Part shown: one piece after another, positions 7,794-20,376 of the stretch
Layout: every line of letters begins with the position of its first letter
Numbering within the stretch: position 1 is the stretch's first letter
Source: an uncultured Alphaproteobacteria bacterium
GTDB lineage: Bacteria; Pseudomonadota; Alphaproteobacteria; M2410
Reading direction: 5' to 3'
Length of the DNA stretch: 64,000 nt
Assembly: GCA_965603015.1 (NCBI GenBank)
Contig: CBFDBJ010000004.1
Span: 5,933 to 69,932, forward strand
Position numbers and translations under genes: made by a program
The notes under the pieces: model-generated
Databases searched by the model: none
What the model was told of the DNA's origin: nothing
What the model saw: the letters and a program-made list of their open reading frames with translations, nothing else

Positions 7794-9347
7794 CTACGGC
7801 GCGGTTTGTTCGTCGGGGGTCAGGGGCAATTCGATCCAGAAGGTGCTGCCGGTTCCGACCTCACTTTCAAATCCGATGCGTCCCGACAGATTTTCCACGA
7901 GAATTTTTGTTGTGGCAAGGCCGATGCCGCTGCCTTCGACCGCTGCCCGGTCGGTCATCTTGATCCGGTGAAACATCTGAAACATCTCTGGACGGTCTTC
8001 CTCGGCGATACCGATGCCTGTGTCTGTCACTGACAGGTGCAGGAAACCATCGCCGGTTCTGTGCCCTGTGATTGTTACTGACCCTTGATCCTTGTTGTAC
8101 TTTATCCCGTTGGCGATGAGATTTACCAGGATCTGGTTGAGTCTGAGATGATCGGTATGAAGATACGCTGACGGACCATGACTGAAGTCATCGATCACTG
8201 TGATCTTTCGTGCCTTCCCCAGCGGGGTCGTCATCGCGACACAGTCTTCGACAACTTCATTGGCATGGACTTCGTCAAGCGACAGATCCAGCTGACCGGC
8301 ATCGATCTTCGCCAGATCCAGAGTGCGGTTGACGAGTTTGAGGAGGTGATCACCGCCCTCGATTATATAGTCACAATGCTCAACCTGTTCTGCCGAAAGC
8401 GGGTTCCTTTTGTCGGAGCGAAGGATCTGTGCAAATCCGAGAATGGCGTTGAGCGGGGTTCTGAGCTCGTGGCTCATGCTGGCCAGAAACATCGACTTGG
8501 CCTCGTCGGCTTTCCGGGCTTCCTGTGTCGCCTTGATCAGGGCCTCTCTTGTACGCCAGTCCCGGGTTATGTCGTGGACGATGCCGTCCATGCGAACTGG
8601 TGTTCCATCGGGGTCTCGCAGCACTTCACCCAGTTCCTGGACTACCTTTTCCTCTCCGTCAGGGCAAACTATCCTGTGAGTGATGGAATAGGGCGTGTCG
8701 TTTTTAACAGTGTCGTTGACAGCATTGGATACGCGTTGCTGATCATCGGGATGAATCGTCTTCAGGAAAGCCTCATAGGTCGCCTCAAATTCCTGTGGGC
8801 GAAGGCCAAATATCCGATAGATCTCGTCTGACCACGCCAGATCGCCGGTCGTTATGTTCCACTCCCAATTGCCAATGTGAGCAATGGCTTGCGCGCGTGC
8901 AAGGCGGGCTTCGCTATTTGCCAGCACCCGGCTGATTTCTTTGGAGGGTGAAGTGTCCCGACAGATCGCTGTGAATTGATAGGTGCTCTCTGCAGAGTGT
9001 TTGTGAATTGAGATCTCGAGAGTCAATTCCTCACCGCTTTTTGTTCTGCCGGTGATTGAGGGGCGTACTGACATTCGGCGCGCTGCGGCTTGTTCCGATT
9101 GAAAGGCCTGAATTTTTCGAAGATGCCCGCCTCTAAACTTTTCGGGGAGCAAAAGATTGAGGGGTTTACCTATGACCTCTTTACCAGAGTATCCGAAAAG
9201 AAACTCGGCAGCCGTATTAAAAATGACAATATTCATCTTGTGGTCAATTGACACGACTGCATCTGAAGTGAGTTCTAGAAACTCCTCCATCTGAAGGGGA
9301 ATAGAATCCTGTTCAGTGCTATTCATGCGACCCTGTCTTTCTTCCAA
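7794..9347 (-). CDS. Cytoplasmic PAS-PAS sensor histidine kinase
   Basis: Two PAS-like segments, an HisKA H-box SHELRTPLNAILGFAQIL and an HATPase_c (GSGIGLATTKILVE); no transmembrane segment. Confidence 0.85.
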   Translation of the reverse strand: MEERQGRMNSTEQDSIPLQMEEFLELTSDAVVSIDHKMNIVIFNTAAEFLFGYSGKEVIGKPLNLLLPEKFRGGHLRKIQAFQSEQAAARRMSVRPSITGRTKSGEELTLEISIHKHSAESTYQFTAICRDTSPSKEISRVLANSEARLARAQAIAHIGNWEWNITTGDLAWSDEIYRIFGLRPQEFEATYEAFLKTIHPDDQQRVSNAVNDTVKNDTPYSITHRIVCPDGEEKVVQELGEVLRDPDGTPVRMDGIVHDITRDWRTREALIKATQEARKADEAKSMFLASMSHELRTPLNAILGFAQILRSDKRNPLSAEQVEHCDYIIEGGDHLLKLVNRTLDLAKIDAGQLDLSLDEVHANEVVEDCVAMTTPLGKARKITVIDDFSHGPSAYLHTDHLRLNQILVNLIANGIKYNKDQGSVTITGHRTGDGFLHLSVTDTGIGIAEEDRPEMFQMFHRIKMTDRAAVEGSGIGLATTKILVENLSGRIGFESEVGTGSTFWIELPLTPDEQTAP

Positions 9348-11586: not shown

Positions 11587-11882
11587 CGTGTGTCCATCAT
11601 TTGTCTTCTCAATCCGAGGTCTCCAAGCGCCTCTTACCAGAGTTCTACAATTGCACAGAAGTTGCGGAGATCCTCGTTTTTCTCATCCTACATTGCTTGC
11701 GAGCGACTCGCAAAGTCAAGGCTCTAATCTGCGACATTGGGACGCTTGCCAGATCACCGGATTGGTCGTCAGGTCAGGCGATGGGTTGGACCGGGACTAA
11801 GCCAGAGGGTTGACCGTTTACGGATTCGGGAGCATCACCATGAGTATCGAAAGGGCCAGTTTTCTTCATGGAGATCAGTTTT

Positions 11883-12710
11883 ATGTCGCGCGAGGGTCAA
11901 ACCGTTTTCATTGTTGGAGGATCGAGTGGCATTGGCCTGGCGGCGGCTTGTCAATTGGCGGCTGACGGCGCCAATGTCGCGATCTTTGCAAGACGCTCTG
12001 ACGTGCTTGAGCGCGCGCGCCAGGAAATTGTTGCGCATCAGAAAGAGCCATCCTCCAGCGTATCTGCCTATAGTCTCGATGCCGCTGATTTTGCTCAGAC
12101 GCAAGAGGTCTTCGCGCGGGCGACAGGGGAGCTCGGCAAACCTTCTGTCCTCATCAACTCGGCAGGCGGTTCTACGCCACATCGTTTTGTTGATATGGAT
12201 GCAGATCAACTGGACCGAACACTTCGATCCAATGTCGCACCCTGCTGGAACGCATGCAAGGCTGTTGCGCCCTGTATGATCGAGCAGGGCGCCGGGACAA
12301 TCGTCAATGTATCCTCCCTGGCAGGCCTCATCGGTGTTTACGGGTATACGGATTATTGCCTGGCGAAATATGGAGTGGTTGGTTTTTCAGAAGCGCTCAG
12401 AAGCGAGTTGAAACCGAACGGGATAAAGGTGCAGGTGTTTTGCCCGCCCGATACGCAAACGCCCGGATATGATGAGGAAAACAAAACCAAACCCGCTGAA
12501 ACGATTGCTCTTTCGGCGGGCGCAAGCCTGATGTCTGCCAGTGATGTTGCCAGGGCCTTGATTGATGGCCTGTCGTCAAACAAATTTGTCGTGCTGGCCA
12601 ATCGCGAAAGCAGGTTGTTCTGGGCTTTGCAGAGATATGCGCCGGGCCTGGGGCGCATTTATATGGACCGCGTTATCGCCAGGGCACAGGCGAAGAGGTC
12701 ATCACCGTAG
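11883..12710 (+). CDS. Short-chain dehydrogenase/reductase (SDR)
   Basis: TVFIVGGSSGIGLAAA Rossmann motif and the NSAG and YxxxK region; GGAGA sits 10 nt upstream of the ATG at 11883. Confidence 0.8.
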   Translation: MSREGQTVFIVGGSSGIGLAAACQLAADGANVAIFARRSDVLERARQEIVAHQKEPSSSVSAYSLDAADFAQTQEVFARATGELGKPSVLINSAGGSTPHRFVDMDADQLDRTLRSNVAPCWNACKAVAPCMIEQGAGTIVNVSSLAGLIGVYGYTDYCLAKYGVVGFSEALRSELKPNGIKVQVFCPPDTQTPGYDEENKTKPAETIALSAGASLMSASDVARALIDGLSSNKFVVLANRESRLFWALQRYAPGLGRIYMDRVIARAQAKRSSP

Positions 12711-12734: not shown

Positions 12735-13463
12735 TCACTCTTGAGACGGGGTCTTTCCGGCGTGTTTGGTGTCTTCGGCGTTGCGTTCGGCGACGCGGCG
12801 AAGGATTGCCTTTGTGTGCAGGATAGAAAACATTTGTTCGGCGTGCGCAAGGCCCTGCTGCGCAAGGGCGGCGGCCTCGTCGGTGGACCGGGTGCCGGGA
12901 ATTCGATCATAGAAATGTTCGACCTCCTGATCGGCAAGCATCTCCGCGGCGTCCTTGTAGCGTTTCATCTCATGGGCAGAATATCCGATGCCGCGATCAA
13001 ACCCCGCATCCTTTACCTCGGCCCATAGCCGCGCAATGCGAGCATCCTGTCCGGAGAGGGTGGGGCCCATCGGTTCGTCTCTGATTGTAATGAGGCCGTC
13101 CGCAGACAGGGCCTGGATATCGGCGGTATCCAGAGATGTTGTTTCGATCAGCTCTTTTACCGAGATGGCTGCGCCGGTGTTGGCGCCCAGACGAGCGGCC
13201 AAAAGGAATTCAAGTCCGACAAGGTTTGGTGTGCCGATCTCGCCTGGCGCGGGGTTTTCAAGCAGGTCGCGAATGACACCAAGCGGCAGGAAGCGTTCGT
13301 CTTTCAGCTTTTTGATAAGCTGGATACGGCCGACATGATCTTCAGAGTAGATCGCCACATTGCGGCGCGGCTTTTCCGGCTCGGGCAAAAGGCCTTCGCG
13401 AATGTAGAAACGGATGGCCTCGCGCCCGATGCCCGTCCGCTCCTCCAGTTCCTTCATCTTCAT
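12735..13463 (-). CDS. MerR-family transcriptional regulator with a ~170-aa C-terminal effector domain
   Basis: N-terminal MerR helix-turn-helix MKMKELEERTGIGREAIRFYIREGLL; the gene ends the P450 gene string. Confidence 0.75.
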   Translation of the reverse strand: MKMKELEERTGIGREAIRFYIREGLLPEPEKPRRNVAIYSEDHVGRIQLIKKLKDERFLPLGVIRDLLENPAPGEIGTPNLVGLEFLLAARLGANTGAAISVKELIETTSLDTADIQALSADGLITIRDEPMGPTLSGQDARIARLWAEVKDAGFDRGIGYSAHEMKRYKDAAEMLADQEVEHFYDRIPGTRSTDEAAALAQQGLAHAEQMFSILHTKAILRRVAERNAEDTKHAGKTPSQE

Positions 13464-13473
13464 GATATGCGCC

Positions 13474-14793
13474 TTATGACTTCAACGGGTGCAACACGAC
13501 CTGCATATCGGTGATGCCCATGACGAAGCAGGAATGAAGGTGTTTGGTTTCTCCAACGACTTCCACTTTGTCAAAGCGGTTCATAATTTCTTCCCAGAGA
13601 ATTCTGAGCTGCATTTCGCCAACCCGATTGCCCATGCAGCGGTGAATACCGAAACCGAAGGATACATGGTGACGGGCTCTGGCCCGATCAATCAGAAACT
13701 CACTTGCACGGTCGATCACCTCATCATCACGATTGCCAGAGATGTACCACATGATGACCTTGTCGCCTTTTTTGATCTGCTTGCCACCCAGTTCGATGTC
13801 TTCCAGAGCGGTGCGACGCATGTGCCCGAGGGGCGTAACCCAGCGAATGATTTCGGAAACCATATTGGGGATCAGGTCCGGGTTGGCTCTGAGCTTGTCA
13901 TATTCTGCCGGGTTTTGGTTCAGGGCCAGGACGCCGCCGGAAATCGAGTTGCGGGTCGTATCATTACCGCCGACGATGAGCAGGATCAGGTTGCCGAGGA
14001 ACTCCATCGGATCGTTGATCATCTCCGAGGTGTCCGGATTTGTAGCCAGCAGCGAAATCAAATCACTTGAGCCCTGATTTTCGGTTCTGTTCTGCCACTT
14101 TTCCATGAAGTAATGCAGACATTCCATGAGCTCTTCGCGGCGAACGTCCTCGCTGACAATTGTTCCATCGGCCAGGGCCTCTTCCTCTGAAATGGCTGTC
14201 GCCACATCCGACCAGCGGATCAGCTTGTGTCGATCTTCCTGGGGCACATCAAAGAGCGTCGCCAGGGTCATCGCTGTGAGCTCAACAGAGACTTTTTCAA
14301 CCCAGTTGAAGGGTTCGCCAACGGGAAGACCGTCCAGAATTTTTCCAACCCGCTCGCGAATTGTACTTTCAAGTTTCGCCAGGTTCATCGGCGCTACAGC
14401 CGGCGTGACAGATTTTCTCTGCACATCGTGTTTTGGTTGATCCATGGCGATGAAGTTCCTGAAATCAAAGTCAGGATCCGGATCGACGACAGTGATCGTT
14501 TTGTCCGAGGAAAAAACCTTGTGGTTGGTGTCAACGGCGACGATGTCGTTGAATTTCGTGACCGACCAGAACGGCCCGAACTCACCGTCCTTACAATAGT
14601 GAACCGGATCTTCCTTGCGCAGCCGTTCAAAATACTCAAAGTGCTTTTGGGCTTCGAAGATATAACTATCGCTCATGTTGATGTCTTCCAGAGCAATGTC
14701 ATAGGCCGAGGGCACATTGTCTACGGAGCCAAGGTTGGCAAACTCCCGATTGCGGTTTGAAAGGTCAGCGTCGGGGGGCGTTATATCCGTCAT
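13474..14793 (-). CDS. Cytochrome P450 of the CYP153 (alkane/terminal hydroxylase) family, paralogue 1
   Basis: Heme loop HHVSFGFGIHRCMGNRVGEMQLRILWEEI, I-helix LLIVGGNDTTRNSISGGVLALNQ, EIIRWVTPLGHMRRTALEDIEL and N-terminal FEYFERLRKEDPVHYCKDGEFGPFWSVTKFNDIVAVDTNHKVFSS all match the CYP153A sequences I recall. Start set at MTDIT with AGAGGA upstream. Confidence 0.85.
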   Translation of the reverse strand: MTDITPPDADLSNRNREFANLGSVDNVPSAYDIALEDINMSDSYIFEAQKHFEYFERLRKEDPVHYCKDGEFGPFWSVTKFNDIVAVDTNHKVFSSDKTITVVDPDPDFDFRNFIAMDQPKHDVQRKSVTPAVAPMNLAKLESTIRERVGKILDGLPVGEPFNWVEKVSVELTAMTLATLFDVPQEDRHKLIRWSDVATAISEEEALADGTIVSEDVRREELMECLHYFMEKWQNRTENQGSSDLISLLATNPDTSEMINDPMEFLGNLILLIVGGNDTTRNSISGGVLALNQNPAEYDKLRANPDLIPNMVSEIIRWVTPLGHMRRTALEDIELGGKQIKKGDKVIMWYISGNRDDEVIDRASEFLIDRARARHHVSFGFGIHRCMGNRVGEMQLRILWEEIMNRFDKVEVVGETKHLHSCFVMGITDMQVVLHPLKS

Positions 14794-14917
14794 CTTTTTT
14801 CCTCTTTTGTAAAACTGTGTGCCGAGCTGAGCGTCGATAACGCTGTTCGGGCCAATCGTTATCGTGATCCGGCACATATTGACGGGTCATGAAAACCGAT
14901 CAGGCCAGATTGTTGTA

Positions 14918-16186
14918 TCAGGATTTTAACGGGTGCAGCTTGACCATCATTTCGGTAATGCCCATGACAAAGTTTGAACGCAGACGTCCAGGCTCACCGA
15001 TAACCTCGACCTTTTCGAAGCGCTTCAGGATTTCTTCCCAAAGGATCCGCAACTGCATCTCGCCAACACGGTTGCCCATGCAGCGGTGAATGCCGAAGCC
15101 GAAGGAGAGATGATGACGCGCCTTGTCACGGTCGATGATGAATTCGTTGGCGCGGTCGATGACTTCGTCATCGCGGTTGCCGGAAATGTACCACATGACG
15201 ACCCGGTCACCTTTTTTGATTTGCTTGCCGTTTAACTCGGTATCTTCAAGAGCGGTGCGGCGCATGTGGCCCAGCGGCGTGACCCAGCGAATGATTTCTG
15301 ACACCATATTGGGGATAACCTCGGGGTTGGCACGCAGCTTGTCATATTCTGCCGGGTTCTGGTTGAGCGCCAGGACGCCGCCGGAAATCGAGTTGCGGGT
15401 CGTGTCGTTGCCGCCGACAATGAGCAGCATCAGATTGCCAAGGAATTCGAGCGGATCATTGGACATTTCCATTGTGTCGGGATTGGTCGCAAGCAGTGAG
15501 ATGAAGTCGGTGCCTTCATAGTTTTCGCCGCGGTCGCCCCACAGTTTCATGAAATATTCGAGACATTCCATCAGCTCTTTCTTGCGCTCTTCTTCGTTGA
15601 CGATGGAACCGTCAGCACCGGTTTGATCCGGGCTCGATGTCGTTACATCCGACCACCAGGTCAACTTGCGTCTGTCTTCCCAGGGAAAGTCAAACAGTAC
15701 GGCCAGCATTCGGGTCGTCAGCTCAATCGAGACCTGGTCGACCCAGTCAAAACTTTCACCAACGGGAAGACTGTCAAGAATCTCACAAACATTCTCGCGA
15801 ATGAGCGCCTCCAGTTTTGCCAGATTGACAGGCGCAACAGCGGGCGTGACAACTTTTCTTTGAACGTCATGTTTTGGCTGGTCCATGGCGATGAACATGG
15901 GCGGATTGAAGTCAGGGTCCGCATCGCCGATCACGATGGTCTTGTCAGAAGAGAAGACCTTGTGATTGGTATCGACAGCCACAATGTCGTTGAATTTTGT
16001 AATCGACCAATAGGGGCCGAACTCGCTGTCCTTGCAATAATGGACCGGGTCCTCCTTGCGCAGCCGTTCAAAATACTCAAAGTGCTGCTGGGTTTGAAAG
16101 AGCAAGCCATCACTGACGTCAATATCTTCCAGTGGTACGTCATAGGCACTTGGTGGTCTGGTGTTCTGGTCGTGGGCCACGGTCAT
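14918..16186 (-). CDS. Cytochrome P450 of the CYP153 family, paralogue 2
   Basis: Shares ~80% of residues with paralogue 1 and carries the same heme-binding, I-helix and EXXR motifs. Confidence 0.85.
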   Translation of the reverse strand: MTVAHDQNTRPPSAYDVPLEDIDVSDGLLFQTQQHFEYFERLRKEDPVHYCKDSEFGPYWSITKFNDIVAVDTNHKVFSSDKTIVIGDADPDFNPPMFIAMDQPKHDVQRKVVTPAVAPVNLAKLEALIRENVCEILDSLPVGESFDWVDQVSIELTTRMLAVLFDFPWEDRRKLTWWSDVTTSSPDQTGADGSIVNEEERKKELMECLEYFMKLWGDRGENYEGTDFISLLATNPDTMEMSNDPLEFLGNLMLLIVGGNDTTRNSISGGVLALNQNPAEYDKLRANPEVIPNMVSEIIRWVTPLGHMRRTALEDTELNGKQIKKGDRVVMWYISGNRDDEVIDRANEFIIDRDKARHHLSFGFGIHRCMGNRVGEMQLRILWEEILKRFEKVEVIGEPGRLRSNFVMGITEMMVKLHPLKS

Positions 16187-16215
16187 GGATCTTGCTCCCC
16201 TTTAGAGTTCAACTA

Positions 16216-16536
16216 TCAGAATTGGGCAATCGGCAGACGGACGACAAGCCCGTCAAGGTCGTCAGTCACCTTGATTTGACAGGCAAGGCGGCTGGTTTCT
16301 TCGGCGGCTTCGGCGAAATCCAGCATGGTCACTTCCATGTCCGTTTTGGTGCCGGTTTTCGACTGCCATTCAGGGTCGACGTAAATGTGGCAGGTGGCGC
16401 AGGCGCAGGCCCCGCCGCAATCCGCGTCGATTCCTGGTACAAGATTGTTCACTGCGCCTTCCATCAGGGAAAGCCCGACGGCGACTTCGACTTTATGTTC
16501 GCTTCCGTTGTTCTCAATGTAGGTAACGCGTGGCAT
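16216..16536 (-). CDS. [2Fe-2S] ferredoxin of the putidaredoxin/adrenodoxin type
   Basis: 106 aa with cluster ligands [11 protein letters not shown]...LACQ. Confidence 0.85.
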
Positions 16537-16681
16537 TCAGCCCTCCCTTTTTGCGTAGTATGAGTACGTATTGCGAACTGTAATCAGTAAATCCCGCAGG
16601 TCAAGTGTGGAATTTGTCTAATCTGGAGGTCGGTCGAAGGTCAGGCCCTCTGGTGGGCGCGAAAGCCTCAGGCCTTCAACC

Positions 16682-17953
16682 TCAGGCTTTCAGGGGGTGA
16701 AGCCGGACGGGCAGTTCAGTGATCCCCATGACGAAGTTGGAGCGCAGGCGGGTGGGTTCGCCGACGACTTCGACCTTTTCAAAGCGCTTCAGGATTTCCT
16801 CCCACAGGATGCGGAGCTGCATTTCACCGACACGGTTGCCCAGGCAGCGGTGAATGCCAAAGCCGAACGAGAGGTGATGGCGCGCCCTGGCACGATCAAT
16901 CAGGAATTCATCGGGGCGATCAATAGCCTCCTCATCGCGGTTGCCCGAGATATACCACATGACCACCTTGTCACCCTTTTTGATCAGCTTGCCGCCGAGC
17001 TCATAGTCCTCGAGCGCGGTGCGCCGCATGTGGGCGAGCGGTGTGACCCAGCGAATGATTTCAGGGACCATGTTGGGAATGATATCGGGGTTGGCGCGCA
17101 GCTTGTCATATTCCTTTGGGAACTGATTGAGGGCGAGGAGACCGCCGGAAATCGAGTTGCGCGTCGTGTCGTTGCCGCCGACAATCAGCAGGATCAAATT
17201 GCCAAGAAACTCGAGCGGGTCCTTTGTTAGATCCTTCGTGTCGGGATTGGTGGCAAGCAGGGAAATGAAATCAGTGCCCTGATAGTTCTCGCCGCGAGAG
17301 GCCCAGAGATTTTTGAAATAATCGATGCACTCGAGCAGTTCCTTCTTGCGCCCTTCTTCGGATATGAAGGCAGCATCCGTGCCGCTTGATTCTGGCCTTG
17401 AGGTCGCAACATCTGACCAGCGCGGCAGCATGCGGCGATCTTCCCAGGGGAAGTCAAACAGGGTTGCCAGCATCTGGGTGGTCAGTTCGATTGAGACCCG
17501 GTCGACCCAGTCGAAGGTTTCGCCGACCGGCAAATCGTCGAGGATTGTGCAGACGCGTGTCCGAATGAGCGCTTCCAGTTGTGCCAGATTGACCGGCGCA
17601 ACGGCCGGCGTAGCGGCTTTTCTCTGCACATCGTGGACGGGGGGATCGGAAGCAATGAAGCTGGAGGTTTGAAATTCGGGGTCGGGGTCTCCGATGACAA
17701 TGGCGGGCTCGGAGGAAAAGACCTTGTGATTGGTATCGACCGCGACGATGTCATCGAATTTCGTGATCGACCAGAACGGCCCGAAGGCGCTCTCGCTGCA
17801 GAAATGAACAGGATCTTCCTTGCGGAGCCGTTTGAAATAATCCCAGTGCCGTTGATTTTGAAAGAGATGGCTGTCGCTGACATCAAGAGTGTCCAGCGGG
17901 AGGTTCCAGGGGCCTGATAATTGATCGGCTTTGTGATCGTCGGCAAGGCTCAT
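16682..17953 (-). CDS. Cytochrome P450 of the CYP153 family, paralogue 3
   Basis: HLSFGFGIHRCLGNRVGEMQLRILWEEILKRF, LLIVGGNDTTRNSISGGLLALNQ and EDPVHFCSESAFGPFWSITKFDDIVAVDTNHKVFSS. Confidence 0.85.
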   Translation of the reverse strand: MSLADDHKADQLSGPWNLPLDTLDVSDSHLFQNQRHWDYFKRLRKEDPVHFCSESAFGPFWSITKFDDIVAVDTNHKVFSSEPAIVIGDPDPEFQTSSFIASDPPVHDVQRKAATPAVAPVNLAQLEALIRTRVCTILDDLPVGETFDWVDRVSIELTTQMLATLFDFPWEDRRMLPRWSDVATSRPESSGTDAAFISEEGRKKELLECIDYFKNLWASRGENYQGTDFISLLATNPDTKDLTKDPLEFLGNLILLIVGGNDTTRNSISGGLLALNQFPKEYDKLRANPDIIPNMVPEIIRWVTPLAHMRRTALEDYELGGKLIKKGDKVVMWYISGNRDEEAIDRPDEFLIDRARARHHLSFGFGIHRCLGNRVGEMQLRILWEEILKRFEKVEVVGEPTRLRSNFVMGITELPVRLHPLKA

Positions 17954-18037
17954 CAGCTCATCTCCCTTTTACGATAACAGTTCGCAGGATCGATGATATC
18001 TGGATATTTCGTCCGGTCAATATGGAACCGCGTTCAC

Positions 18038-19627
18038 CTAACCCTCCAGTTCCACGAAATTAAGAGCTTGATTGGCGGTTCTCATGACGTGGCGCCTCTT
18101 TACCGAGTTCTGCAAAAACCGGTTCAGGGCGGCTGTCATGAGAGAGACTTGCGGACCTTGCGGCCTTGCTGTGATCTCCCTTTGTGTTGCGGTAATGAGT
18201 TTGACGATGTGACAGGAAACGATGTGCTCGAACTGGGCGTGATCGAAGAGGATTTCTTTGGCCTCACTGACAAAGGGCTCAGGGTTGTCCACATTGAATT
18301 CGCTTGTATCGAGATCCTTGTCGACAAAGGGTGTGTTGCGTCCAAGGAAACAGGCCATTTGCAGAAGCCCTTGCGGCCAGAGATCCGGATAGCGCGTGCA
18401 AAGCTCGTGGACGGAATTGGCAAAAGTTATGGCGTGGGTGAAGTTGAGCCAGTCGACGTTGTGGGAGATGTTGGTGCCGGTGTGGCGCTGGAATTCGAGA
18501 TCAAAGTGGAGAAAATTCCAGGCATTGGCCGCAAGCAGGGCGTCATAGAGTGCGCGCGGATCTGATGAACTCCCTGTCGCCTTTGCCAGAGCCTGGCGGA
18601 CAGACAGGCCCTTGAAGTCTTGCCAGTCTACCGGCGCTTCGCCCTTGTTGGTCCAGTTTTTCAGGGCATCGCGGTAATTGCGAAACTCGGGAATAAGATC
18701 CTCCCGTCTGGCATAGACGAGTTCGCGCATCAGAGCCAGGGTTGCCGGCACCATGATCCTTTCGCCCAGCCTGTCGACGAGCTGACCGATTTTGAGCACA
18801 TAGATGGTCGCGTGGCCAAACCCCTGATAGTGGGCGAAGGCGGCGCGGGCGAGAGCCGGTTCGATGTCTCTATATCTGAGGCCAGCACGTGCGGCGCCGC
18901 GAATAAGTGCAGCGGCCTCGTCTTCATGTTCGCCCTCAACGGCGGTTACAAATGTGTCTTCGTTCCACTGAGCAACTGCATCCGTAAAAGGATAATCGGG
19001 CTCGCGGCGCGTGTCCCATGCGATATGGGCGGTCGGCTCAAGGAAGGTGATGAGGTGTTTTGCCGGATTGTCGTGAACTTCGTCTGCGAGCGTCATCCAG
19101 TCGGCGGCGGCGGCAAAGGGATGGCCCATGCCATATTCGAATTTCTCGTGTGAGCGCAGAACGGCGTTGGCCAGAACGTCCTTCAAGTTTCCGCCATCCT
19201 TTTTGTAGCGGGCGAGTTCGCGGGCGATGCGGTCATAGTCGTAATCGTCCCAGGCTTCGCTCAGGTTTTCGAGGATCCTCGGAAGTCTCTGTCCAGGTGC
19301 AGGATCAGATAAATCAACGAGGACTTCGCCATTCTTGACCTTGACGGGATAGAGGCGAACTGCATCGCCGCCGACCATGGCCTCTCCTGTGGTCAGGTCA
19401 AATTTCCAGTTGTGCCAATTGCAGGTTAGAGTGCAGGTGCCAGGGCCGCTGCCTGTCAGCGTGCCTTCGGCAAGGGGATAGCCTTCATGGGGGCAGCGAT
19501 TGTTGCAAGCGAAGGTCTCACCGTCTCGCAGGATTACGAGGACCTGCTTGCCGTTTTTCTTGAAGACCTTTTGGCCTTTTTCTTCCAGTTCGCTCAGAGG
19601 TCCCGCAGATGTCCAGATCTGGTTCAT
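18038..19627 (-). CDS. Rieske [2Fe-2S] domain fused to a ~420-aa domain of unknown function
   Basis: N-terminal Rieske motifs CPHEG...(21 aa)...CNWHNW. Start set at MNQIWTS (ATG 19627) with AAAGGAG upstream; the track's longer ORF to 19729 would overlap the divergent regulator. No DxxHxxxxH mononuclear-iron motif of Rieske oxygenase alpha subunits is recognisable in the C-terminal part. Confidence 0.7.
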   Translation of the reverse strand: MNQIWTSAGPLSELEEKGQKVFKKNGKQVLVILRDGETFACNNRCPHEGYPLAEGTLTGSGPGTCTLTCNWHNWKFDLTTGEAMVGGDAVRLYPVKVKNGEVLVDLSDPAPGQRLPRILENLSEAWDDYDYDRIARELARYKKDGGNLKDVLANAVLRSHEKFEYGMGHPFAAAADWMTLADEVHDNPAKHLITFLEPTAHIAWDTRREPDYPFTDAVAQWNEDTFVTAVEGEHEDEAAALIRGAARAGLRYRDIEPALARAAFAHYQGFGHATIYVLKIGQLVDRLGERIMVPATLALMRELVYARREDLIPEFRNYRDALKNWTNKGEAPVDWQDFKGLSVRQALAKATGSSSDPRALYDALLAANAWNFLHFDLEFQRHTGTNISHNVDWLNFTHAITFANSVHELCTRYPDLWPQGLLQMACFLGRNTPFVDKDLDTSEFNVDNPEPFVSEAKEILFDHAQFEHIVSCHIVKLITATQREITARPQGPQVSLMTAALNRFLQNSVKRRHVMRTANQALNFVELEG

Positions 19628-19710
19628 GGTCAATGCACTCCTTTTTAAAGATATTTCTTTATAAATATAGAGGGCTTGCCTTTTATCAAGAAAAAACTTT
19701 ATAAAATGGT

Positions 19711-20376
19711 ATGACTGGCAAATCATCACATAAAGAACCCGGCTTCGCAGATGGTTCGCAAAAGACCCGCGACAGGGTCATTTCGCTCCTGAAACGCGAG
19801 GGACCACAGGATGCAGGGGTCCTTGCGGCAAGACTTGGCGTTAGCGCCATGGCCGTGCGCCAGCATCTCTATGAGTTAAGCGATCAGGGCCTGGTGACTG
19901 CATCCGAGCAGAAAGGCGCGATTGGGAGGCCGACAAAAATCTGGGCACTGGACGTGACCGCGAGTGGCCTCTTTCCGGATGGTCATGGTGATTTTACTTA
20001 TGAGCTTATTGGCTCCATTCGGGAGACCTTCGGCGAGGAAGGCATGGCGAGCCTTTTGCGCAATCGTTCGGAGAAGCAAATCACCTCCTATAAGAATCAG
20101 ATGGGCGATGGGTCGCTCAGTCAGCGTCTTGAGCGCCTCGCGGCGATCCGCAGCGAGGAGGGCTATATGGCCGACGTGACAGAGGCGGAGGACGGATCTC
20201 TCCTGATGGTGGAGAACCATTGCCCGGTCTGCCAGGCCGCAAAAGCCTGCAGCGGCCTCTGTGCGGAGGAGTTGCATGTCTTTCAGGCGTGTCTGGGTCA
20301 GAGTGTGAAGATTGAGAGGGCCGATCATATCCTGGCCGGTGCGCGGCGGTGTGCCTACCGGGTCACGGCCATCTGA
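19711..20376 (+). CDS. Winged-helix (ArsR/MarR-like) transcriptional regulator with a Cys-rich C-terminal region
   Basis: HTH segment RVISLLKREGPQDAGVLAARLGVSAMAVRQHLYELSDQGLV and C-terminal HCPVCQAAKACSGLCAEELHVFQAC...RRCAY (putative metal or Fe-S ligands). Transcribed divergently from the Rieske/P450 string. Confidence 0.55.
   Translation: MTGKSSHKEPGFADGSQKTRDRVISLLKREGPQDAGVLAARLGVSAMAVRQHLYELSDQGLVTASEQKGAIGRPTKIWALDVTASGLFPDGHGDFTYELIGSIRETFGEEGMASLLRNRSEKQITSYKNQMGDGSLSQRLERLAAIRSEEGYMADVTEAEDGSLLMVENHCPVCQAAKACSGLCAEELHVFQACLGQSVKIERADHILAGARRCAYRVTAI

Follow-up and report, generated by a model that had tools for sequence, protein, structure and literature searches.

We analyzed a 64-kb stretch of DNA from an uncultured marine alphaproteobacterium (the whole stretch is referred to here as the window) that carries, on its minus strand, a string of genes for a Rieske protein, three cytochrome P450s, a ferredoxin and a MerR-like regulator, with a helix-turn-helix (HTH) regulator gene diverging from the Rieske gene. 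An open reading frame (ORF) map and domain scans gave the same order of the P450/Rieske string as first described in an earlier note on this DNA, and the positions of the features are collected in Table 1. The module is flanked by rpsU, def, COQ9 and purK on one side and by a short-chain dehydrogenase/reductase (SDR) gene and feoB on the other; the cluster had previously been taken to start at 13474, and the MerR-like gene falls just outside that limit. Our results indicate that the region probably consists of two adjacent, independent units: Unit 1 (12735-18020, minus strand), which would be a class I CYP153A hydroxylase module, and Unit 2 (18038-20376), a putative Rieske/BTG13-like oxygenase with its own SufR-like Fe-S regulator, which would simply be a neighbour of Unit 1.

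Table 1. Genes and candidate regulatory sites of the region, in window coordinates
Feature	Position	Strand	Remarks
SDR	11868-12710	+	ORF map and domain scan
MerR/FtsR-like regulator, 242 aa, no cysteine	12735-13463	-	last gene of the CYP153 module, 10 nt past P450-1
CYP153A paralogue 1 (P450-1), 439 aa from ATG 14793	13474-14793	-	longest ORF to 14877
CYP153A paralogue 2 (P450-2), 422 aa	14918-16186	-	best PDB match CYP153A7
[2Fe-2S] ferredoxin of putidaredoxin/FdVI type, 106 aa	16216-16536	-	Pfam Fer2 match
Inverted repeat CGTAC-TCATA-CTACG, candidate operator	16554-16568		strand not assigned; 8 nt downstream of the -10 of the ferredoxin promoter
Promoter-like TTGACC-16-TACAGT before the ferredoxin gene	16577-16604	-	scan score 9/12
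CYP153A paralogue 3 (P450-3), 423 aa, upstream of ferredoxin	16682-17953	-	best PDB match CYP153A7
Promoter-like TTGACC-16-TATCAT in the 84-nt gap between Rieske fusion and P450-3	17993-18020	-	scan score 10/12
Rieske fusion, 529 aa: Rieske [2Fe-2S] domain ~1-110 and predicted all-helical BTG13/PaD-like domain ~115-529	18038-19627	-	probable separate unit
SufR-like ArsR-type regulator, divergent from Rieske fusion	19711-20376	+	Pfam HTH_5/HTH_20

The likely start of P450-1 is preceded by an AGAGGA ribosome-binding site, which the ATG at 14877 lacks, and the same start was picked by an outside gene caller on the identical contig L007. The ORF of the Rieske fusion spans 18038-19729, and translation probably begins at ATG 19627, which has an AGGAG site upstream; the resulting length fits the 525-540 aa of its homologues.

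In the closest metagenome-assembled genome (MAG), L008, the genes for P450-3, ferredoxin, P450-2, P450-1 and the MerR-like regulator occur in the same synteny, with rpsU directly before P450-3 and with neither an HTH nor a Rieske gene. Window and L008 share 90% identity over the 77 nt that lead up to the P450-3 start, a stretch that takes in the promoter-like TTGACC-16-TATCAT sequence, whose hexamers are also kept in L002; in L008 it is preceded by a terminator-like hairpin that follows rpsU. Right after that hairpin (L008 ~8130-8165) lies a remnant of ~20-32 nt, with ~32 nt aligning at ~72% to the end of the window's Rieske gene (final codons and stop), which looks like a deletion scar. We also carried out a census of the 80 closest other CYP153 loci among species-representative genomes. 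Flanking DNA of up to 10 kb was included, genes were mapped by tblastn, and the Rieske fusion was found in 0 of the 80. Homologues of the fusion in L004-L006 (Pelagibius, Aestuariispira and a 6.9-Mb genome) had no P450 nearby, and the divergent HTH neighbour was present again in two of these three.

The Rieske gene had been described as the head of one operon with the P450s, in which the fusion might act as a substitute redox partner or carry out an extra oxygenase step. Such an operon would account for the shared strand, the 84 nt to P450-3 and the adjacency of the two genes that is conserved in L002, L003 and apparently L001; moreover, we found no terminator-like hairpin between the Rieske fusion and P450-3, so that read-through co-transcription is possible, and this counts against two independent units. 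However, the Rieske protein has no FAD/NAD domain and cannot replace a reductase. Because the full P450 module stands in L008 without the Rieske gene and with its P450-3 promoter region kept, because no other CYP153 locus of the census has the fusion, because homologues of the fusion occur away from P450s, and because the conserved partner of the fusion is a SufR-like regulator, we conclude that the Rieske unit is separable from the P450 module, and that a single operon headed by the Rieske gene is improbable.

To name the P450s, we applied the nomenclature thresholds of at least 40% identity to named CYP153 members for the family and more than 55% for the subfamily. The best match of all three in the PDB was CYP153A7 (3rwl), with 60.3% identity for P450-1 (E 4.6e-156), 64.0% for P450-2 (E 3.4e-168) and 63.0% for P450-3 (E 4.5e-165), each over 400 aligned residues. 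The next matches were other CYP153A structures, and CYP153D17 and CYP125 scored far lower. All three translations contain the heme loop FGFGIHRC(M/L)GN (FGFGIHRCMGN in P450-1), the ExxR motif as EIIRW, LLIVGGNDTTRNS and an intact I-helix motif GGNDTTRN. By both identity rules, the three P450s are thus assigned to subfamily A of CYP153, and the earlier description of three tandem CYP153 paralogues, which would have failed had the P450s fallen outside this clade, holds by identity.

The paralogues are mutually 69-77% identical in protein and 71-76% in DNA, far beyond chance. In a neighbour-joining tree, the three window copies clustered with copies from L008, L002 and L009, and the sister of this clade was the P450 of L029, a Rhodospirillales MAG with a single ferredoxin-P450-MerR triad; the arrays of Parvibaculaceae fell in separate clades. 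Therefore, the triplication appears to have arisen in this lineage from an ancestral ferredoxin-CYP153-MerR triad, independently of the duplications in Parvibaculaceae. P450-3, P450-2, the ferredoxin and the MerR-like protein are 91-97% identical between the window and L008 (96% for P450-2 and 97% for P450-3), and P450-3 is 82% identical to its L002 copy. For the P450-1 slot, identity to the third copy of L008 (L008:11321-12586) drops to 77%, and the nearest relative of that third copy is the second copy of L008 itself (86%), which suggests that the third slot turns over, by a recent re-duplication or by gene conversion, in one of the lineages. We also observed a 7-bp inverted repeat, GATAACG-N14-CGTTATC (~14836-14863, minus strand), within the 124-nt gap that separates P450-2 from the likely P450-1 start; it could be an internal regulatory or RNA-processing site.

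The single Fer2 gene among the three P450s agrees with the one ferredoxin reported previously. Its best PDB matches were Rhodobacter ferredoxin VI (E 5.6e-35), putidaredoxin and terpredoxin, and the cysteine pattern Cys40, Cys46, Cys49 and Cys86 is visible in the translation. By these matches, the protein is assigned to the putidaredoxin/Rhodobacter FdVI class, the usual partner of class I P450s. Pfam scans covered 40 ORFs of the window, including every ORF of at least 300 aa outside the region (or its opposite-strand alternative), and the ORFs outside the region proved to be housekeeping genes (FeoB, PntAB, PAS kinase, PurEK, COQ9, Def, Tkt, Gap, Pgk, ThiE, RuvB and TolB). Among the scanned ORFs there was no Pyr_redox or FNR-type match and no AraC domain, and a tblastn search of the whole window with putidaredoxin reductase (CamA) gave no match at E 1e-3; the CamA probe was validated by reductase matches at 43-46% identity in 7 control loci. 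The window thus has the adjacent [2Fe-2S] ferredoxin of a canonical CYP153 operon, and it has neither the in-cluster FAD-dependent reductase nor the divergent AraC/XylS regulator, in agreement with what the earlier note had reported.

That note had presented the missing reductase and AraC regulator, together with the triplication, as exceptional, which the census does not bear out. A reductase lay within 10 kb in only 7 of the 80 loci, all of them from Henriciella or other Hyphomonadaceae-type genomes, so that supply of the reductase in trans would be the norm. Two or more CYP153A genes were found in 18/80 loci and three or four in 14/80; the latter were mostly arrays of Parvibaculaceae and Rhodobiaceae, in which one ferredoxin gene is followed by three to four P450 genes. 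Multiple CYP153 copies were also described in 32 of 87 genomes, with up to five in Parvibaculum lavamentivorans (PMC4021335). Several of the fetched CYP153 loci had a P450-ferredoxin-TetR layout. The lack of both reductase and AraC is therefore typical of the clade and not special to the window. The unusualness of the cluster had been overstated, and in terms of gene content the cluster is best classified as a lineage-specific variant of a common architecture, not as an exceptional operon.

The regulator at the end of the P450 string has an N-terminal MerR-type winged HTH. Its 242 residues include no cysteine, and the metal- or redox-sensing C-terminal cysteines of the MerR/CueR/SoxR type are accordingly lacking. 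On the FtsR model it scored 48 bits, far under the 150-bit cut-off, and its C-terminal domain had no sequence match in the PDB; in a predicted structural model, this part resembles the oleate-binding regulatory domain of Rv1264 and Rv1828/FtsR (PMC12505454, PMC6683498). PF28507 is precomputed as a domain in some homologues of the protein. Unlike FtsR/Rv1828, which are actinobacterial MerR-type proteins with a C-terminal regulatory domain, the window protein comes from a proteobacterium, its gene is linked to CYP153 and not to ftsZ, and it appears to go with another operator motif.

Homologues of this regulator lie directly after CYP153 in L002, L008, L029, L056 (Pseudomonadales) and L169, and the ferredoxin-CYP153-MerR triad recurs in L029, L056 and L169. 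A metagenome scan seeded with the MerR alignment alone gave 80 loci (34-48% identity); a CYP153 gene (57-74% identical) stood immediately upstream on the same strand in at least 18 of these, and many of the others were too short to judge. This recurrent adjacency and the 10-nt spacing in the window indicate that the MerR-like gene is, as judged from gene neighbourhoods, a recurrent partner of CYP153 and part of the P450 module. Previously, a MerR gene had been noted only beside alkB1 in Alcanivorax dieselolei, by similarity alone (PMC3664771). In 11 of the metagenome loci L089-L167 that lack an adjacent CYP153, a member of the same family lies beside a PotA-like ABC transporter; in 5 its neighbours are an acyl-CoA synthetase and a glutathione S-transferase, and in 3 a ferritin-like di-iron protein. 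Such surroundings hint that the family serves lipid or aliphatic metabolism more broadly.

The inverted repeat ahead of the ferredoxin gene is the sole match in the window to the family consensus CGTAG-N5-CTACG, with 0.01 matches expected. Of 19 CYP153 loci with an adjacent MerR gene, 17 have a match of 9/10 or better in the 200 nt that precede their first gene, compared to 8 of 76 CYP153 loci without one (all Parvibaculaceae-type arrays) and 0.8% of background windows. Across ferredoxin-CYP153-MerR loci, the arms of the repeat are conserved and the 5-nt centre varies, a pattern that fits a protein-binding site better than an RNA hairpin. Strict matches also occur near four MerR homologues without a P450, at distances of up to ~1.2 kb. 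From this statistical link, we infer that the repeat is a candidate operator of the MerR-like regulator.

Several observations speak against this assignment and the promoters that go with it. The promoter-like sites are consensus matches no commoner than in shuffled sequence, and what supports them is conservation: besides the P450-3 site, an equivalent of the ferredoxin promoter, TTGAC(C/G)-16-(-10), is also present in L008, L002 and L029. Classical MerR proteins distort a 19-20 bp spacer between -35 and -10 that contains the dyad; this mechanism does not apply here, because the spacers are 16 nt long and the repeat lies 8 nt past the -10. Furthermore, eight arrays of Parvibaculaceae, Rhodobiaceae and Tepidicaulis (L010, L014, L016, L017, L018, L021, L022 and L024) carry the repeat 70-150 nt upstream of the ferredoxin gene and have no MerR homologue within 10 kb, so that another factor could bind there. 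Arrays of this kind would be expected if the repeat were bound by some other factor or acted as an RNA element in the 5' leader, as would its position downstream of the -10, which is atypical for a MerR protein. We consider this rather unlikely, given the co-occurrence with an adjacent MerR gene and the strict matches near regulators without P450s. In addition, the arms are conserved and do not covary, the stem has only 5 bp, and no Rfam family matched the region. Binding outside the -35/-10 spacer is known from FtsR-type MerR proteins (PMC6683498), and Parvibaculaceae do encode homologues of the regulator (L168), so the regulator of their arrays may be encoded elsewhere in the genome. The operator assignment to the MerR-like protein is therefore the one that we retain. 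Separately, the spacer of the promoter-like site before P450-3 contains a short palindrome, ATATC-CA-GATAT, where L002 has GATAT-N5-ATATC; this could be an additional operator, different from the one ahead of the ferredoxin gene.

As proposed here for Unit 1, electrons from NAD(P)H would pass to a ferredoxin reductase encoded elsewhere in the genome, from there to the single putidaredoxin-type ferredoxin and then to the three CYP153A paralogues. These would hydroxylate the terminal methyl group of aliphatic chains, i.e., n-alkanes or related alkanols and fatty acids, and their divergence suggests that they probably differ in substrate range. Two promoter-like sites seem to serve as transcription starts, one ahead of P450-3 and the other ahead of the ferredoxin gene. 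Since the repeat follows closely on the -10 of the latter, at the probable site of initiation, the MerR/FtsR-like regulator would most simply act as an autoregulated repressor, and a lipid-like effector bound to its C-terminal domain, as modelled, would relieve the repression.

The P450s might serve a purpose other than alkane assimilation, namely the omega-hydroxylation of fatty acids, fatty alcohols, isoprenoids or algal lipids, a possibility that overlaps with the proposal above and differs from it in the physiological substrate only. CYP153A enzymes hydroxylate fatty acids and alkanols, and this acceptance of non-alkane substrates counts against a role in alkane oxidation alone. The module has no conserved association with an alcohol or aldehyde dehydrogenase or with an alkane-uptake gene. 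The SDR gene is absent from the module flank in L002. In L008 two genes stand between the SDR and MerR genes, and we rejected the SDR as the alcohol dehydrogenase of the pathway. The resemblance of the regulator's modelled C-terminal domain to a fatty-acid-binding domain would also fit a lipid substrate. However, CYP153A7 and other nearest relatives with a solved structure or a name are alkane hydroxylases, and alkanes are the reference substrates of the CYP153 family (PMC8784404). A purely non-alkane function thus appears unlikely, although less so than a shared operon with the Rieske gene, and terminal hydroxylation of n-alkanes or related alkanols and fatty acids is the function that we favour.

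The Rieske protein of Unit 2 carries the CxH...CxxH motif, with C45, H47, C69 and H72 invariant in 39 sequences and a Pfam Rieske match at E 1.9e-14. Matches to oxygenase subunits cover this domain only. The catalytic domain of a classical Rieske oxygenase, a helix-grip fold with a 2-His-1-carboxylate site, was not found; instead, residues 115-529 are all-helical in the predicted model and would adopt the all-helical fold of questin oxidases. Within the fusion family H169, H272, H398, H473 and K476 are invariant, with a spacing of 103/126/75 plus HxxK. The metal ligands of PaD are H63, H166, H317, H394 and K397, with a spacing of 103/151/77 plus HxxK (PMC11371914, PMC12173810), and the 106-residue offset between the fusion and PaD equals the length of the Rieske domain. 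From this spacing, the Rieske fusion has an apparent 4-His-1-Lys iron site.

No bridge to the known enzymes was found at the level of primary sequence. Neither the C-terminal domain nor its stand-alone relatives matched PF14027, even at permissive E-values; a Pfam search of the domain with E up to 10 gave only a spurious DUF2576 match, a profile search against all PDB sequences gave only Rieske proteins, and the stand-alone relatives P0194 and P0253 had no Pfam match at all. Foldseek did not rank BTG13/PaD-type PDB chains for the Rieske fusion. We then consider the family as a whole: a hidden Markov model of the domain, run against 1.84 billion representatives, retrieved 746 clusters at 50% identity, nearly all of which were 520-550 aa long with the domain starting at 105-130, and therefore the fusion is the rule. 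The Rieske-fusion family comprises more than 2,600 matches, mostly from Alphaproteobacteria, and is widespread in marine members.

In contrast to BTG13, GedK and PaD, which are DUF4243, questin-oxidase-like non-heme iron dioxygenases whose center comprises four histidines plus one carboxylated lysine (4-His-1-Kcx), the fusion domain is bacterial, chromosomal and located outside natural-product clusters; it almost always has an N-terminal Rieske domain, and it has no sequence match to PF14027 or a PDB chain. The claim that the Rieske protein is unusual is supported, and we found no description of a Rieske domain joined to a BTG13/PaD-like all-helical domain and no paper in the searchable library that pairs Rieske with BTG13, DUF4243 or GedK. 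We tentatively propose that the fusion represents an undescribed class of self-contained Rieske oxygenase, in which the Rieske domain would feed electrons to a BTG13/PaD-type domain with a 4-His-1-(carboxy)Lys center, and which is commonly paired with a SufR-like regulator that would sense Fe-S clusters. As a lesser novelty, we propose that a MerR/FtsR-like repressor, free of cysteine and lipid-sensing, with CGTAG-N5-CTACG as its operator, would control an entire subclade of environmental CYP153 operons. Taken together, this is a reading that we regard as somewhat less likely than not.

The divergent HTH gene had been taken for a hydrocarbon regulator, and it turned out to encode a SufR-like Fe-S regulator paired with the Rieske gene. 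The protein scored 132 bits on the NCBIfam SufR model TIGR02702, under the 178.8-bit cut-off for SufR itself, and C171, C174, C180, C184 and C214 are invariant in six orthologues (HCPxC...C...C...RRCAY). Divergent pairing of the SufR-like gene with the Rieske fusion was found in L001, L002, L003, L004 and L006, and thus in more than one genus, and the neighbour was the Rieske fusion and not suf genes, which suggests an Fe-S-sensing regulator dedicated to the Rieske gene. The AT-rich intergenic region of 83 nt between the two genes (19628-19710) contains two TTTATAAAG motifs, which could be an operator of the SufR-like protein.

The cluster had also been described as an accessory island. Recent acquisition of such an island by horizontal transfer would be in line with the slightly lower overall GC content of P450-1 and P450-2 (0.52-0.53, compared to ~0.56-0.57), with the known movement of CYP153 genes between taxa (PMC4021335) and with the finding that the nearest outgroup P450s belong to other alphaproteobacterial orders. 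However, GC at third codon positions is normal, at 0.64-0.70 for the module genes and 0.58-0.71 for the flanking housekeeping genes. No tRNA genes were found, the only repeats were the P450 paralogues themselves, with no flanking repeats, and the scanned ORFs of the window included no integrase, transposase or other mobility gene. In addition, L008 and the more distant L002 and L003, whose Rieske protein is 67% identical, have the module at the same place in the chromosome. A recent island is thus very unlikely, and the conserved position points to an accessory cluster that has been inherited vertically for some time.

Among characterized systems, CYP153A7 (AhpG1) of Sphingopyxis macrogoltabida HXN-200 (PDB 3rwl) and other CYP153A enzymes (5fyf, 8b2p) share with the window P450s the heme loop and the I-helix motif, as well as the organization as class I soluble P450s served by a [2Fe-2S] ferredoxin. 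Unlike CYP153A7, the window has three diverged copies on one ferredoxin and no reductase nearby. The operons of Alcanivorax borkumensis SK2 (P450-1/CypR) and Dietzia sp. DQ12-45-1b have, as here, a core of ferredoxin and CYP153 with an in-cluster regulator (PMC8784404). The CYP153 regulators that have been characterized belong to the AraC/XylS type, in some cases with TetR genes in the vicinity (PMC8784404). Compared to these canonical operons, the window lacks both reductase and AraC, and instead has a MerR/FtsR-like regulator downstream on the same strand, which appears to be tied to the CGTAG-N5-CTACG repeat just downstream of the -10. The arrays of Parvibaculaceae and Rhodobiaceae are closer in layout, with one ferredoxin, multiple CYP153A genes and no reductase within 10 kb, and several of them have the same inverted repeat upstream of the ferredoxin gene; the window differs from them in having one P450 before the ferredoxin, an adjacent MerR gene and independent duplications.

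Among the soluble alkane hydroxylases of marine and soil bacteria, the CYP153 enzymes are the main ones, and they are wanted as biocatalysts for terminal hydroxylation. Our results indicate that the alphaproteobacterial and marine CYP153A clade does not as a rule have the textbook operon of ferredoxin, P450, reductase and AraC regulator. In this clade the reductase is usually encoded elsewhere and copy number shifts by local duplication. What is new at this locus is modest, namely an independent triplication with a fast-changing third copy and, where canonical operons have AraC, a MerR/FtsR-like regulator that has a candidate operator. For studies of divergence in substrate range, the paralogues offer a natural set together with their third slot. 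The MerR/FtsR-like protein and its defined repeat would be a second, undescribed solution to CYP153 regulation, which might be reused as a biosensor for hydrocarbons or lipids. The Rieske fusion is the most novel element of the region and, if its proposed nature is true, would extend the newly recognised 4-His-1-Kcx iron enzymes to bacteria in a Rieske-coupled form.

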